A stretch of 20,000 bases of DNA from an uncultured virus (IMG/VR IMGVR_UViG_3300032320_001919) (taxonomy: Duplodnaviria; Heunggongvirae; Uroviricota; Caudoviricetes): the IMG/VR virus record IMGVR_UViG_3300032320_001919, one strand, 5' to 3'. Position numbers and translations under genes: made by a program. A model generated the notes under the pieces. The model was not told the origin of the DNA and did not search any database. It saw only the letters and a list, made by a program, of their open reading frames with translations. Shown here one piece after another: positions 1 to 9,457 of the stretch; the first letter of the stretch is position 1; each line of letters starts with the position of its first letter.

Positions 1-124
1 CATCGAGTAAACGATGCGCAGTACAAAGAAGTTGCGCAGACTCAAGGATCATTTTGACAACATGCTTGTCAACCATCCACTGAGCAGCTTGTACTGGATC
101 TTTATCAATGTAGAAAATGTTCAT
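1..124 (-). CDS. Pyrimidine-dimer DNA glycosylase (DenV/Pyr_excise-like), 5' portion, runs off the window
   Basis: Not in the ORF track. Manual translation from ATG at 124 gives MNIFYIDKDPVQAAQWMVDKHVVKMILESAQLLCTAH, matching the recalled MNIF..D....AA....DKH..KM..E.AQ.L N-terminus. The start overlaps the deformylase stop (ATGA). Confidence 0.75.
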   Translation of the reverse strand, partial: MNIFYIDKDPVQAAQWMVDKHVVKMILESAQLLCTAHRLLD

Positions 125-627
125 GCAGATACTTTCATTTCAAATTTATCGCCACGTTTCCATTTCTTCAATGCTTGGTCGCGGTGATAGCGGTTTGCTC
201 TGTTGTAGAAAAGGATTCCATCCAAATGATCTAGTTCATGTTGAAATATTCTAGCAGTTATTCCCGTAAACTGTTTCGTTAACACATCACCATTAGGAGT
301 GCTGAATCTAACACGAATATGCTGCGGTCTAGTAATCTTAACTAATAACCCATTATAAGTCAAGCATCCTTCTTCAAGTTCTACTTTAGCTTCCGACTTC
401 CAAACAATTTTTGGATTGATGCAAACAAAGTTTTCAGGAGCTCCTCTCATAGCAAAAATTCTATATGGGATACCAACTTGATTGGCAGCAATACCTATCC
501 CGTTGTTATCGTACATAAACTTGACAAGATCTTTAGCAAACTGCACAGGATCAAATGGAGCACTTAAAAAATTAAATGTTTTACAAGGAGTGGTTAATAT
601 TGGGTCATTATGATTTACTAACTGCAT
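121..627 (-). CDS. def: Peptide deformylase
   Basis: All three PDF motifs are present: GIGIAANQ, EGCLT, HELDH. Confidence 0.95.
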   Translation of the reverse strand: MQLVNHNDPILTTPCKTFNFLSAPFDPVQFAKDLVKFMYDNNGIGIAANQVGIPYRIFAMRGAPENFVCINPKIVWKSEAKVELEEGCLTYNGLLVKITRPQHIRVRFSTPNGDVLTKQFTGITARIFQHELDHLDGILFYNRANRYHRDQALKKWKRGDKFEMKVSA

Positions 628-2333: not shown

Positions 2334-3397
2334 ACTATACTAACAGCCTCATTATACAAGTCAAATATCTTCTTAGTCAACTTGTCTTTGTTGACATTTT
2401 TCAATTCATAAGCATCAATATACTTCTTGAATATGTCGATAGTCGACTCTGCTTCGTTAACAATATCTTGATCGTTTTCCATATTCAAATTGAGATGATC
2501 TTCTACGATTTGGATATCTATAGGATTTTCGCTCTCTAAATTTTCGATAAACTTATCAAACCAATAATGATTTGTTTTATTTGTTACAATAACTTTAATC
2601 AAGCTTCCGGCATACTGTTTGTAATCTATTTTCTTTTGTAAGAAAGAATCGTCGGCGTCATTGTACCAAACCTTTTTGAACATTTTGAAAGAATTTTCGA
2701 CGAATGTCAATTCCCTAGTATCAGTATCAAAAATATGGAAGCCACGAGGATCATCAAAATCCGACCATGTAAACTCGCCATGGCTACCCAAATAGTAAAT
2801 ATGACCATCAGTGGAGCGGTGATGATAGTGACCAGACATAACAATATCAAACTGATCAAAAATATCCCGATTATCGCCATGAGAAACAATAGACCCTCGA
2901 TACATCTCGAAACCTTGTATTTCAAGGTGTCCCATCGCGATCTGCGCAGGTGTGGATTGTATGGCATTTATAATCTGCTTGCGATTATCGTCGCAAATCC
3001 AAGGGATGAATAGAATAGGTACTCCACCAAAAGTGACAGATTCGGCATGCTTGGTGTAAGTTTTGAAAGAAGGGTATGCATTTTCAACAAGCTCCTTGAT
3101 AGCGTTAACTTCGTTTGTATTTTTATAATGAGTGTCGTGATTGCCAGCGATAAGATGAACTTCGAGATTGCGATCTTTAAGTTTTTCAAGAAAGTCGACC
3201 CTCATTCTACGAGCAGTGTTTATGTTAATATACTTACGCCTATCGACAAGATCACCAAGATGAACAACAGTGTTAATACTGTTACTGTCAATATAGGGAA
3301 AAAAGATTTCATCAAGAAACTTTTTATTGTTGTCAAGGAATGCCACATTGTCGTTTCTTACACCCCAGTGTGTGTCTGCTAAAAGAGCTATTTTCAT
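2330..3397 (-). CDS. gp47: gp47 recombination endonuclease nuclease subunit (Mre11/SbcD-like)
   Basis: Metallophosphoesterase motifs DTHWG, GDLVD, GNHD, GHLE, SGHYH. Adjacent to gp46. Confidence 0.97.
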   Translation of the reverse strand: MKIALLADTHWGVRNDNVAFLDNNKKFLDEIFFPYIDSNSINTVVHLGDLVDRRKYININTARRMRVDFLEKLKDRNLEVHLIAGNHDTHYKNTNEVNAIKELVENAYPSFKTYTKHAESVTFGGVPILFIPWICDDNRKQIINAIQSTPAQIAMGHLEIQGFEMYRGSIVSHGDNRDIFDQFDIVMSGHYHHRSTDGHIYYLGSHGEFTWSDFDDPRGFHIFDTDTRELTFVENSFKMFKKVWYNDADDSFLQKKIDYKQYAGSLIKVIVTNKTNHYWFDKFIENLESENPIDIQIVEDHLNLNMENDQDIVNEAESTIDIFKKYIDAYELKNVNKDKLTKKIFDLYNEAVSIV

Positions 3398-4026
3398 TTA
3401 TTGCCTTTACAATTATCAAAATGATACCTCATCATCGCTGGTTTACCTCCACTTTTATTACAAATCGGACAAGTGACTTTTTGTTTAGGGTTTCGATTTG
3501 CCGAAACAGACATTTTCTTTTTAGTTTCTTCAGACACTTTTTGAACACCCTTTTTGCCTTTGTTCCATGGACCTTCTAACCTATTTTTTAATATCATAGT
3601 GTTTACGTTTTCAAAAACGATTGAAGGAACTTTGTGTCCATATGCAGGATGGTCTTGTCCAAATTTACCTAACATGTTACGACTATGATTTTCAGCAATT
3701 TTTTGTCTTGTTTCTAAAGTTTGTGGATGCCCTCTGAAGTTAATGTTAGCCTTTCCAAAAAGCTTGTTTCCATCCTCTTCTGTCAAATTCGCAAATTGTT
3801 TATCGTTTACTACATTCCACAATTTAGAATAGTGTTGGCCAACACGAGAAATATCTTCTATGTTTTCGGATGCAAACAGAACCGTAGTTTCTACGTTATA
3901 TCCATGCTCCGATATATGTTTTTTCCAATACAAACCAGAACCTCTGTATTTTTCTGGATCGTTTTTCGTATAACCTAGATACTTTAAGCCCGTTACATTA
4001 TGTTTTTTTAAATACAAATAGAACAT
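3394..4026 (-). CDS. Free-standing GIY-YIG (Seg-like) homing endonuclease with NUMOD3-type repeats and C-terminal zinc ribbon
   Basis: YLYLKKHNVTGLKYLG...YRGSG N-terminus, ETRQKIAE and SEETKKKMS repeats, PWNKG, CPIC..HFDNC. GGAGGAGG SD and TATAAATA upstream. Confidence 0.88.
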   Translation of the reverse strand: MFYLYLKKHNVTGLKYLGYTKNDPEKYRGSGLYWKKHISEHGYNVETTVLFASENIEDISRVGQHYSKLWNVVNDKQFANLTEEDGNKLFGKANINFRGHPQTLETRQKIAENHSRNMLGKFGQDHPAYGHKVPSIVFENVNTMILKNRLEGPWNKGKKGVQKVSEETKKKMSVSANRNPKQKVTCPICNKSGGKPAMMRYHFDNCKGNK

Positions 4027-4047: not shown

Positions 4048-4055
4048 TATTTATA
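4048..4055 (-). promoter_or_regulatory. T4-type late promoter TATAAATA upstream of the endonuclease
   Basis: Exact gp55 consensus 22 nt upstream of the ATG at 4026. Confidence 0.8.
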
Positions 4056-4672: not shown

Positions 4673-6217
4673 TTAGAACGTTAATGCTACTTTGTAGATC
4701 TTGTAGTCGAACTTCTCTTCGTTGTAAATCTTAATTCTCTCCATGAAGTGGAGCAACGTATAGTTCTTTTTAGTTTTCCAAGAAATATCGTCAGCGATAT
4801 CGAAAAGAGTAGCTTCTGATTTGGTCTCGGACTTTCTAAGTCCACGTCCAATAGACTGAAGATTTCGAATGCGAGACTTCGAAGGCGAAGCAAATATCAC
4901 ATTGTTTATATTAGGAATATTGATACCAGTTGAGAAAGTTCCATAAGAAGCAATAATGATATTACCCGTTCCTTGGTTTACAATTTTACGAATCTCTTCG
5001 CGTTCACTACCATCTATTCCGCCATGAACAAAATATACTTTGTCTTTTACATCTGCTTTGATTGAATCATAGAGCACTTGACCGTGTTTCTCTACAAACT
5101 GAAACAACATTAATGTATTTCCTTCAAGAGAAAGAGCAAGGTTCTTTATGAAATTGTTTCTTGCAGCTAGCTTTACAATGTAATCCATTTCTGCTTGATA
5201 GTCAGAAGAACGAGAGATCATCTGACGAATCTCGTCTGGGTAAGAAAGCACGATAGCCTTGATCCTGAAATCGGCAAGGTGCTTCTGCTCGATAAGTTCT
5301 GCCGTTGTAGTTACTTTACGGACAGGACCAAACAAACCTTCAAGTACGAGCTTATGAGTTTGAGTGCCATCAAGTGTACCAGTAAAGCCAAATCTATATT
5401 GACAGTTTTCCAGTTTGGTCAAAATAGATGTTAGTGATTTGGCTTTGAAGTTATGAGCCTCATCGCCAATCACTACATCATATTGATCGAACCACTCTTT
5501 AGATTCTTTGTATATGCTTTGCCAAGTCGTTATCGTGACTTGGGCTTGCGACCTCTTTTCTTGCCCTGCGTAGATTTTGTGGATCCCGCTGGTCCAGCTG
5601 GACCGTTCATTGCTGGAGGAGTTTTCGGAACCGCTTCCGACCCTACGGCTCCCTGAGTCACTGCGTCTGTGATCTGATTGTTCACTGCAGTATCCGTACT
5701 CTTCGAAGTCGGATGCGAGTTGGTGAACCAAAGTCGTCGTAGGAACGATAATAAGCGTTTTAGCATTGTAATACCTCATTAATAGATAGATAATAAATGA
5801 CTTGCCTGAGGCAGTCGGTGATAATAATAAAGCCCGACGTTCTCGTACTGCATGTACGAAAGCATCGAGCTGGTAATCTCTTGGTTTAAATTTATTTGGT
5901 ATACTTAAAGTTTCGATAAACTTTTTAGCTTCAATCAAAGAAAATTCATCAGAACTAAAATCTGTTTCGTATTCTATTTCATAATTTCTAGACTTGCAAA
6001 ATTCTTCAACGTAACGATTTAATCCACCGTATAAAGTGCAAGTCATTAAATTGAAAAGTCTTATTTTGCCATCCCAAACTTTGTTTCGAACGGCTGGCAT
6101 AAACTTAGCTCCTGGAACATCAAACGTAAAATACGTATTTAATTCCATAGCTATAGAAGGTTCACAATCAATCTTATTATAAACTTCGTTAAGTTTTCTT
6201 ATTCTTACAGTTTCCAT
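4673..6217 (-). CDS. uvsW: UvsW SF2 RNA-DNA/DNA-DNA helicase, with a Ser/Arg-rich insertion
   Basis: WDGKIRLF, PRDYQ, SPTASGKS, DEAH, TGT, QSIGRGLR motifs. Confidence 0.96.
   Translation of the reverse strand: METVRIRKLNEVYNKIDCEPSIAMELNTYFTFDVPGAKFMPAVRNKVWDGKIRLFNLMTCTLYGGLNRYVEEFCKSRNYEIEYETDFSSDEFSLIEAKKFIETLSIPNKFKPRDYQLDAFVHAVRERRALLLSPTASGKSFIIYLLMRYYNAKTLIIVPTTTLVHQLASDFEEYGYCSEQSDHRRSDSGSRRVGSGSENSSSNERSSWTSGIHKIYAGQEKRSQAQVTITTWQSIYKESKEWFDQYDVVIGDEAHNFKAKSLTSILTKLENCQYRFGFTGTLDGTQTHKLVLEGLFGPVRKVTTTAELIEQKHLADFRIKAIVLSYPDEIRQMISRSSDYQAEMDYIVKLAARNNFIKNLALSLEGNTLMLFQFVEKHGQVLYDSIKADVKDKVYFVHGGIDGSEREEIRKIVNQGTGNIIIASYGTFSTGINIPNINNVIFASPSKSRIRNLQSIGRGLRKSETKSEATLFDIADDISWKTKKNYTLLHFMERIKIYNEEKFDYKIYKVALTF
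5530..5766 (-). CDS. Putative overprinted 78-aa protein nested in uvsW (alternative frame, same strand)
   Basis: SD TGAGGT (5773-5778) 6 nt before the ATG. Amphipathic N-terminus MLKRLLSFLRRLWF, Pro/Ala/Thr linker and basic tail KKRGRKPKSR. Spans the UvsW insertion. Confidence 0.6.
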   Translation of the reverse strand: MLKRLLSFLRRLWFTNSHPTSKSTDTAVNNQITDAVTQGAVGSEAVPKTPPAMNGPAGPAGSTKSTQGKKRGRKPKSR

Positions 6218-8763: not shown

Positions 8764-9441
8764 TTAATTATTTATAAGTTCTCTTCTTTTAGCCCAAGAT
8801 TCTTTAAGTTTAGTTCTTTGATTCGCTGCCCAAACAGGATCTGCCCATCTAAATTTTAACTGTTGAGAACACAACTTATCCTGTTCTTTACGAGTCATCG
8901 TTTTCTTTGGCGCAGCTCTTTTTCTGGAACCATCAGACCATTGAGCTTTCATACGCTCTGAGTTTTGTTGTTTCCATTCCTCAGTATGAGGTTTCTTTTT
9001 AATTCCTTTTAATGCTGCTTTATGATCTTCGGTGAGAGCTTTCCCTTTTTTAGCAGCTGAAATTTTAGCGCCTCGTTTTTCAGGAGCAGGAACACTTTTG
9101 CCTGTTTTTGAATAGGATATTTTTTGCCCTACAGTTTTGACAGATTCAGGGTATTGATGCCATGGGTTTCCGTTTTTTGTATTTAAATTATAATAACGTA
9201 TTTTTTTCTCTTCTGGTTTTTGCATATCAAGATATCGTTGTTCTTCAATGTACATCTGTTCTCTTGATAAATTTGTTTTTAAAATACGTCTTCTAAAATT
9301 TTCAGGACGGCGATTATATGCATCTCTCATCCAATTAGAAGAACAGATATATCCATCAGTTGTTAACCCCCAATGACATCCTACGTAATAACGCTTATGT
9401 TTAACATCATACCAAAGATAAACAAACCCATATTTTTCCAT
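8764..9441 (-). CDS. Free-standing GIY-YIG (Seg-like) homing endonuclease with NUMOD3-type repeats
   Basis: GFVYLW...YYVGCH.G...DGYICSS, RRIL, E, YYNL catalytic pattern and KISAAKKGK/HTEEWK repeats. Start moved to ATG 9441 because GGAGG lies just upstream. Confidence 0.88.
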   Translation of the reverse strand: MEKYGFVYLWYDVKHKRYYVGCHWGLTTDGYICSSNWMRDAYNRRPENFRRRILKTNLSREQMYIEEQRYLDMQKPEEKKIRYYNLNTKNGNPWHQYPESVKTVGQKISYSKTGKSVPAPEKRGAKISAAKKGKALTEDHKAALKGIKKKPHTEEWKQQNSERMKAQWSDGSRKRAAPKKTMTRKEQDKLCSQQLKFRWADPVWAANQRTKLKESWAKRRELINN

Positions 9442-9457
9442 TATAGCCTCCAAAATG

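Follow-up and report, generated by a model that had tools for sequence, protein, structure and literature searches.

Genes embedded out of frame in other genes are well established in small phages and among the spanins of phage lambda, and in phiX174 gene B in A and gene E in D are out-of-frame nested genes with internal ribosome binding sites. To our knowledge, such genes have rarely been described in large T4-like phages within the core genes for replication and recombination. This report concerns a probable gene of this kind, an open reading frame (ORF) nested in the uvsW helicase gene on a stretch of 20,000 nucleotides from an uncultured virus of the Caudoviricetes (IMG/VR record IMGVR_UViG_3300032320_001919). 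This whole stretch, called the window below, is part of a T4-like myovirus, and its minus strand carries all the genes. An earlier note on the window, made from the sequence alone, had proposed that a hidden gene explains an odd insertion in UvsW. Whereas phiX174 has a small single-stranded DNA genome that is under size constraint, the uvsW case belongs to a large double-stranded DNA phage, and genome compaction is therefore a weaker explanation than it is for phiX174.

An instructive parallel is Rz1 of lambda, described as a small gene lying wholly inside Rz, on the same strand, in the +1 frame and with its own start (PMC6139136). The same text, citing Rancurel et al., states that out-of-frame embedded genes are enriched in disorder-promoting residues, and adds that embedded genes are routinely missed by gene callers. 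The uvsW locus resembles Rz/Rz1, as presented there, in its embedded +1-frame layout on the same strand, the presence of an own start and a product rich in disorder-promoting residues (PMC6139136). The differences are considerable. Rz1 is a lipoprotein of the outer membrane, and the lipobox Cys that marks an Rz1-like o-spanin is absent here, all 21 versions of the nested uvsW product being free of Cys and polybasic. The host gene Rz acts in lysis, whereas uvsW encodes a replication/recombination helicase; and unlike in Rz/Rz1, part of the overlap is a lineage-specific insertion of the host protein whose sequence appears to evolve under the embedded frame.

A second parallel comes from the polyomaviruses, where, according to PMC4446436, the de novo ORF of ALTO/Middle T overlies a disordered part of the helicase-containing Large T (LT), and the two frames constrain each other's codons. 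Overprinting on a disordered part of a helicase-containing protein and mutual codon constraint are thus shared with the uvsW case (PMC4446436). ALTO/Middle T differs in that it belongs to a eukaryotic virus, that its expression involves splicing, that the overlap lies in the N-terminal domain of LT and that there is no sequence relationship; the nested ORF in uvsW, by contrast, sits in a loop within the helicase core. A literature search that covered mostly titles and the openings of abstracts, with most subscription journals outside its range, returned no description of a gene nested in uvsW, in agreement with what the earlier note had supposed. The embedded architecture itself is known; new are the orphan gene, its host gene, and the host-protein insertion evolving under the nested frame.

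The UvsW insertion and the frame nested in it

The UvsW protein of the window matches the Pfam families ResIII, DEAD, UvsW_N and Helicase_C (PF21241, 1.7e-13; PF04851, 1.2e-21; PF00271, 2e-11) and T4 UvsW (2oca; E=1.3e-83). The GDEAH motif is invariant, so that the protein combines the UvsW_N domain and similarity to T4 UvsW with an SF2 helicase core bearing a DEAH box, and its AlphaFold2 model has a predicted local distance difference test score (pLDDT) of 78.8. Into this conserved enzyme a GC-rich segment of 36 residues is inserted (Table 1), around which T4 UvsW aligns in two stretches, skipping query residues 179-220. According to the earlier note this loop is usually under about 10 residues, and this agrees with the comparison: the insertion is present in only eight of 75 aligned related uvsW loci (long in L001-5, L007 and L049, shorter in L050), the loop of the remaining 67 being about 5-7 residues. 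The GC content is 0.55-0.57 over positions 5550-5699 and mostly 0.25-0.43 elsewhere in uvsW. AlphaFold predicts an unstructured loop (pLDDT <50 for residues 179-209) between a helix at 161-173 and a strand at 212-215.

Among insert-bearing sequences the loop varies from 13 to 49 residues, counted from Y-G to the conserved His, yet insertion site and frame are constant, and the indels are in multiples of 3, as the earlier note had expected, so that the uvsW frame stays open. In the nested frame the insertion encodes the motifs NQITD(A/S)VT and QGAVGSE..P.TPPA.NGP. A 9-nt tandem duplication (GGTCCAGCT/GGACCAGCG), seen as a 9-nt alignment gap elsewhere, is specific to the window and to loci L001 and L002; it is in frame for both genes, lengthening the nested protein by G-P-A and the UvsW loop by three residues.

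Table 1 Positions in the window of the uvsW locus, the features nested in or overlapping it, and neighbouring genes mentioned in the text
Feature	Coordinates	Strand	Remarks
uvsW helicase gene	4673..6217	-	514 aa; host gene of the overlap
Nested ORF	5530..5766	-	78 aa and stop codon; ATG start; +1 frame of uvsW, wholly inside uvsW
Shine-Dalgarno-like GAGGT	5773..5777	-	formed by uvsW codons (A/C)TG-AGG-TAT
Nested ATG start	5764..5766	-	formed by AAT-G of uvsW Asn-Ala
N-terminal overlap	5693..5766	-	with UvsW motif I-Ia region; nested residues 1-25, including predicted helix 2-16
GC-rich 108-nt insertion	5585..5692	-	UvsW residues Y176-G211 (36 residues), between DFEEYG and IHKIYAG
Best-conserved nested core	5596..5658	-	nested residues 37-57, TQGAVGSEAVPKTPPAMNGPA
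9-nt tandem duplication GGTCCAGCT/GGACCAGCG	5587..5604	-	forms a 14-nt palindrome (self-match 5591-5604)
C-terminal overlap	5530..5584	-	with UvsW IHKIYAGQEK..VTIT; nested polybasic tail STKSTQGKKRGRKPKSR and stop codon
Antisense ORF	5453..5656	+	67 aa; wobble position coincides with that of the nested frame; rejected rival
Peptide deformylase	121..627	-	phrog_2890, E=4.5e-43
Homing-endonuclease-like ORF	3394..4026	-	phrog_314, E=1.6e-10
Homing-endonuclease-like ORF	8764..9453	-	phrog_314, E=1.6e-20; TTG start

The 78-codon shifted-frame ORF that the earlier note had described is present, with a Shine-Dalgarno (SD)-like GAGGT separated from the ATG by a spacer of 6 nt (ATTACA) and with the +1-frame stops TAA TGA directly upstream. 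Relatives were collected by scanning viral and metagenome contigs, with UvsW as the query at first and subsequently by alignment of nested peptides. This gave 16 distinct nested-region sequences from the window and 26 loci, 13 of them insert-bearing and three without insertion (L046-48, close relatives), here called the nested clade. GAGGTAYTAYAATG is present in all 16, as is an open +1 frame of 66-110 amino acids, despite very different insert lengths, and the proposed conservation of SD, ATG and open alternative frame thus holds throughout. Five further predicted proteins from short metagenome contigs are versions of the same nested ORF, which brings the number of nested-protein versions to 21.

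The start signals are conserved at sites that are synonymous for uvsW. The Arg codon in the SD is AGG in all 14 nested-clade genes, against 13% gene-wide use, and the ATG-forming Asn codon is AAT in all 14, against 54% gene-wide. The codon preceding the SD Arg ends in G in 14 of 14 nested-clade genes and in 24 of 26 genes of a wider clade, which comprises insertion-free uvsW genes of aquatic T4-like phages (65-77% protein identity). Wherever Asn precedes a G-starting codon, it is AAT (26 of 26 genes), against 54-63% gene-wide. The two Tyr codons of the spacer are variable, unlike the fixed codons of SD and ATG. The lowest third-position rate of uvsW, 0.12 relative to the gene mean, is found at codons 145-152; the rate is 0.33-0.73 at codons 181-250 and returns to about 1 where the nested ORFs of most relatives end; suppressed synonymous variation over the overlap had been another expectation of the earlier note.

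Stop codons tell a similar story. Given the UvsW protein, 26.8 stops are expected in the +1 frame between the ATG and the insertion (codons 151-176) of 14 sequences, and none is seen. Outside the ORF region, observed +1-frame stops approximate the expected number (e.g. 23 vs 24.2 in L007), and the null model for stops is therefore calibrated. Conversely, with the +1-frame protein taken as given, the chance of a uvsW frame without stops across the insertion is 0.08-0.32 per lineage, and yet this frame is open in 10 of 10.

Regarding transcription, none of the five window matches to the T4-type late promoter motif TATAAATA lies in or just upstream of uvsW, and a search for sigma-70-like internal promoters gave five matches, which is at the level expected by chance (3.0±1.7). 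In view of this lack of a promoter signal for the nested ORF, internal initiation on the uvsW message is the simplest route to its expression.

Selection on the two frames

The insertion and its flanks differ clearly in the frame that is under selection. In the core of the insert (21 codons, 11 sequences), which aligns without ambiguity, the ratio of nonsynonymous to synonymous rates (dN/dS) is lowest in the +1 frame, at 0.31; the uvsW frame gives 1.20 and the +2 frame 0.62. Pairwise differences at +1-frame codon positions 1/2/3 amount to 278/220/501 in this core. The +1-frame peptide of the core reads (T/I)(Q/V/K)GAVG(S/T)(E/D/K)....NGP, with GAVG and NGP invariant in the 11 sequences, while the overlying uvsW residues vary, drifting among S, R, G and N. 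Fitch parsimony on a tree of 16 sequences gave 56/49/89 changes at +1-frame positions 1/2/3 of the insertion, the +1-frame wobble position being dominant (chi-square P=8.6e-4). For the N-terminal overlap, with its dominant uvsW wobble position, the corresponding numbers are 12/49/13, and for the C-terminal overlap 27/53/36. An alignment made from nucleotides only gave the same register, the counts being 112/102/210 for the insertion and 18/34/18 for the uvsW block that follows.

Since both frames are to be judged at once, an overlap-aware test in the manner of OLGenie was used, with dNN/dNS for the +1 frame and dNN/dSN for the uvsW frame. For the insertion the +1-frame ratio was 0.37 (0.22-0.61; none of 1000 bootstraps reached 1) and the uvsW-frame ratio 1.01, which fits the proposal that a nested gene explains the insertion. 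Over the whole ORF the values were 0.63 (0.40-0.89; bootstrap P=0.004) and 0.37, and the uvsW-frame ratio was as low as 0.16 in the N-terminal and 0.34 in the C-terminal overlap. The flanks thus appear to be ruled by the helicase and the insertion by the nested frame. Taken together, sequence comparison shows frame-specific purifying selection, maintenance of both frames, conservation of SD and ATG, and avoidance of +1-frame stops.

We consider it probable that the nested ORF is a genuine translated gene, overprinted on uvsW and embedded in it in the +1 frame of the same strand. Ribosomes would start internally on uvsW mRNA at GAGGT-N6-ATG (5777..5764) and make a small, strongly basic protein, of 78 amino acids in the window and 66-110 in relatives, laid out as a short helix at the N-terminus, a central block of conserved motifs and a tail rich in Lys, Arg, Ser, Thr and Pro. 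The shared DNA would be divided between the two genes, with the helicase ruling the flanks (motifs I-Ia and the strand region IHKIY...TWQS) and the nested gene ruling the sequence of the insertion, a tolerant disordered loop on the UvsW surface that UvsW would require only to be open and in frame. If so, the nested gene accounts for a low-complexity insertion that would be hard to understand in a conserved enzyme, and uvsW would be a concrete, testable example of how a gene arising de novo can acquire coding sequence at no cost to the gene that hosts it. The search for hidden genes could then be guided by odd in-frame insertions of high GC content in AT-rich phage genes.

Several points weigh against this interpretation. 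The length of the ORF is not significant by itself: in synonymous-codon shuffles an alternative-frame run of at least 81 codons has P=0.22 for the uvsW of the window, with P=0.04-0.30 per gene among the genes shuffled, and the case therefore rests on comparative evidence. In the N-terminal overlap no +1-frame selection is detected at the amino acid level (dNN/dNS 1.05), and in the C-terminal overlap the signal is marginal (0.64; 0.29-1.18). The bootstraps resample codons instead of lineages, the sequences are related and uvsW is mosaic, and the P-values are therefore optimistic. The ORFs of the window's group and of P0003 end about 20-25 residues before the other nested ORFs; the stop codon at 5530-5532 is created by ATA-ACG, and the nested frame continues in most relatives, which have ATC-ACA at this place. 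The AlphaFold2 model of the product is of low confidence (mean pLDDT 59.9), and RGR, present in the tail of the window's version, occurs in only nine of 21 nested sequences, the canonical RGRP in one. A tblastn search with the nested peptide against 50,697 phage records gave no match, and in the two cultured relatives that were checked, Melnitz-1 and P-RSM4, the region has many +1-frame stops and the ORF is absent; with no match in a cultured phage, the evidence comes wholly from metagenomic contigs.

One alternative is an accidental ORF, the insertion then being a variable, low-complexity UvsW loop rich in Ser, Arg, Gly and Asn. This agrees with the 22% of synonymous shuffles that contain an 81-codon alternative-frame run and with the open +1 frame of many insertion-free relatives, which could reflect amino acid constraint on uvsW. 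It would, however, place most change at the uvsW wobble position, which is the least variable one in the insert (49 of 194 changes), and it is at odds with a uvsW-frame dN/dS of about 1.0-1.2 and with invariant GAVG and NGP in the +1 frame of all core sequences. Moreover, stop avoidance and the codon choice at SD and ATG need selection at synonymous sites, and chance is thus a very improbable explanation. A +1 frameshift from uvsW between GAGGT and the insertion, yielding an N-terminal UvsW fragment with a +1-frame tail, would account for the detection of +1-frame selection only from the insertion onward, and SD-like sequences within a gene can promote +1 shifting, as they do in prfB. We nevertheless regard it as improbable. 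The ATG does not vary although uvsW would tolerate a synonymous change there, every nested-clade sequence has +1-frame stops 3-4 codons before the ATG, and a shift near the insertion would not need the stop avoidance that begins at the ATG. A prfB-like site combines a shift-prone codon with an in-frame stop or a hungry codon just after an internal SD; by inspection of the sequence only, no uvsW-frame stop follows GAGGT.

Periodicity alone cannot separate the nested frame from the antisense ORF of Table 1, since the two share their wobble position. If the antisense frame were the selected one, it would give the same pattern; most lineages conserve its peptide ...VDFVD..GPF.AGG....DPTAP, and several have 69-116 open codons in this frame. 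That it is the coding frame is hardly credible, however, as it is interrupted in two loci (13 aa in L084, 25 aa in L092), lacks a Met in six of the 16 listed sequences and reads the conserved NQITDSVT as VTESVI-stop. Sites that are synonymous in the +1 frame and nonsynonymous in the antisense frame evolve at a rate of 0.76, whereas the converse sites evolve at 0.29 (bootstrap P=0.009). That wobble positions can coincide in this way is a general pitfall of testing overlapping genes by periodicity. A conserved RNA or DNA element in place of a +1-coding sequence (a structured RNA, a regulatory or a protein-binding site) is suggested by the GC-rich island in an AT-rich gene and by the 14-nt palindrome, and yet it can be given next to no credence: the palindrome arises from the subgroup-specific 9-nt duplication, no Rfam match was found at E<=1, and the RNAalifold consensus of -8.19 kcal/mol over 221 columns has a covariation term of +0.23, with compensatory change in one of 14 pairs. 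Nor would such an element lead one to expect 3-periodic substitution or two open frames. Equally remote is the idea that the insertion was copied from a donor gene in the donor's frame and kept similar by repeated insertion or gene conversion, the +1 signal reflecting selection on the donor. It is in line with the visible mosaicism of uvsW, the nearby homing-endonuclease-like genes and the occurrence of insert-bearing genes in two places on the whole-protein tree. Against it, site and frame of the insertion never change, and neither a second copy nor a similar peptide was found in the 20-kb window, nor any donor in the 50,697 phage records, 1.84 billion representative proteins or a word-indexed set of 5.8 billion clusters; the nearest record, G001, is a 17-kb contig of L003.

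The predicted nested protein

The overprinted gene would encode a basic, mostly disordered protein. The version in the window has a pI of 11.7, a net charge of +11 and no Cys, and across the 21 versions, every one of them basic and hydrophilic, the pI ranges over 10.0-11.9 and the net charge from +6 to +16. AlphaFold predicts a helix at nested residues 2-16, with pLDDT of about 83 for the first ten residues, and a weak helix at 26-40, the rest being disordered. The conserved pieces are MLKRLLSFL, NQITD(S/A)VT, QGAVGSE..PETPPA.NGP.ESTKS and the tail of Lys, Arg, Ser, Thr and Pro. The conserved basic tail foreseen by the earlier note was confirmed as to its basic nature, whereas its length is not constant; given the early stop in the window's group and in P0003, the far part of the tail must be dispensable or lineage-specific.

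Database searches with the product returned little outside the locus. Pfam gave no family at E<=1 for three nested proteins, AT_hook included. PHROGs gave weak matches for four nested proteins, none common to all, the best (8.3e-4) being to a family of unknown function and for one relative. The best ESM Atlas score of the nested protein, 0.83, was below the threshold for a lead. HMMER over the 1.84 billion representative proteins returned three matches and the profile search of the word-indexed clusters five, all of them the same nested ORF. The product thus appears to be an orphan protein family confined to this locus, and the absence of a homologue outside the locus fits a de novo origin.

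Minor-groove binders with AT-hook or RGR motifs include HMGA, and H-NS and Lsr2 with their 'RGR' motif; the core of the AT-hook is R-G-R-P. The Lys/Arg-rich nested tail bears some likeness to these, with KKRGRKPK in the window and the canonical KKRGRPRK in L097. It differs in that Pfam AT_hook is not matched and in that RGR is not constant in the nested family, and from the counts given above it follows that the AT-hook motif is not a conserved feature of this family. Of the interpretation offered in the earlier note, the overprinted gene is thus backed by comparative sequence evidence, whereas neither the AT-hook-like tail nor the suggested tethering of nucleic acid to a membrane is supported. 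Our best guess, offered with well below even confidence even if the gene is real, is that the polybasic, disordered product binds nucleic acid electrostatically via its tail, with the conserved centre acting as an interaction motif. DNA or RNA would be a reasonable target because of co-expression with a recombination/replication helicase.

Wider clade, mosaicism and neighbouring genes

Signals of the nested gene extend to uvsW genes without the insertion. In the wider clade the SD Arg codon is AGG in 22 of 26 genes, against 10% gene-wide use, 23 of 26 have a +1-frame ATG no more than two codons from where the nested clade has its own, and codons 151-176 contain a single +1-frame stop where 51.7 are expected. 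The +1-frame ORFs are 65-124 codons long, and their peptide is Leu-rich, hydrophobic and transmembrane-like with a polar tail. More distant uvsW relatives have many +1-frame stops in the nested region. The presence of ORF, SD and ATG signals in insertion-free genes suggests that the nested gene may be older than the insertion and more widespread. We tentatively entertain, with somewhat less than even confidence, the broader possibility that the embedded gene spans the wider clade, that uvsW has long been dual-coding, and that the nested protein changed its character and was enlarged in one lineage by expanding the helicase loop. If this is true, a de novo gene would have reshaped its host protein, and the two products may act together on DNA.

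Insertion-free uvsW genes that keep GAGG, ATG and an open +1 frame over window codons 148-240 were found at L006, L008, L015-L030, L045, L053, L057 and L062-L078. The L022 group has a run of 124 codons (P=0.008 for the longest alternative-frame run), and this span was open in none of 1000 shuffles.

The history of uvsW itself is not simple. The genes of the window and L002 are near-identical from codon 1 to about 310, with 0-5 third-position differences per 30 codons, and diverge sharply from about codon 311, with up to 23 such differences per 30 codons, which indicates a probable recombination breakpoint inside uvsW. On the whole-protein UvsW tree, the insert-bearing L084 and L090 branch apart from the main insert-bearing clade; either an old insertion was lost repeatedly, or the 5' half of uvsW was moved by recombination.

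Peptide deformylase is an auxiliary gene typical of aquatic T4-like phages, and its gene in the window adjoins the gp46/gp47-like genes. Besides peptide deformylase and two homing-endonuclease-like ORFs, PHROGs identified genes in the window for the tail sheath, tail tube, portal, prohead protease, scaffold and major head protein, for UvsY and the late sigma factor gp55, and for gp47/gp46-like nuclease subunits. One of the homing-endonuclease-like ORFs lies beside gp55, one gene away from uvsW. According to PMC2988022, SegE of T4, a GIY-YIG endonuclease, adjoins uvsW and targets it, and the nearby homing-endonuclease-like genes may be related to the mosaicism of uvsW.

The five TATAAATA matches in the window (4048, 8705, 8769, 10956 and 12001) are all on the minus strand, which is the coding strand. 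One of them, at 4048-4055, is just upstream of the endonuclease-like ORF 3394..4026, and that at 8769-8776 is upstream of an ATG internal to the TTG-started ORF 8764..9453. At least three of the five lie just upstream of gene starts, namely those of an endonuclease, the major head protein and the scaffold protein. The count of five compares with a chance expectation of 1.76 and was reached in 10 of 200 shuffles.

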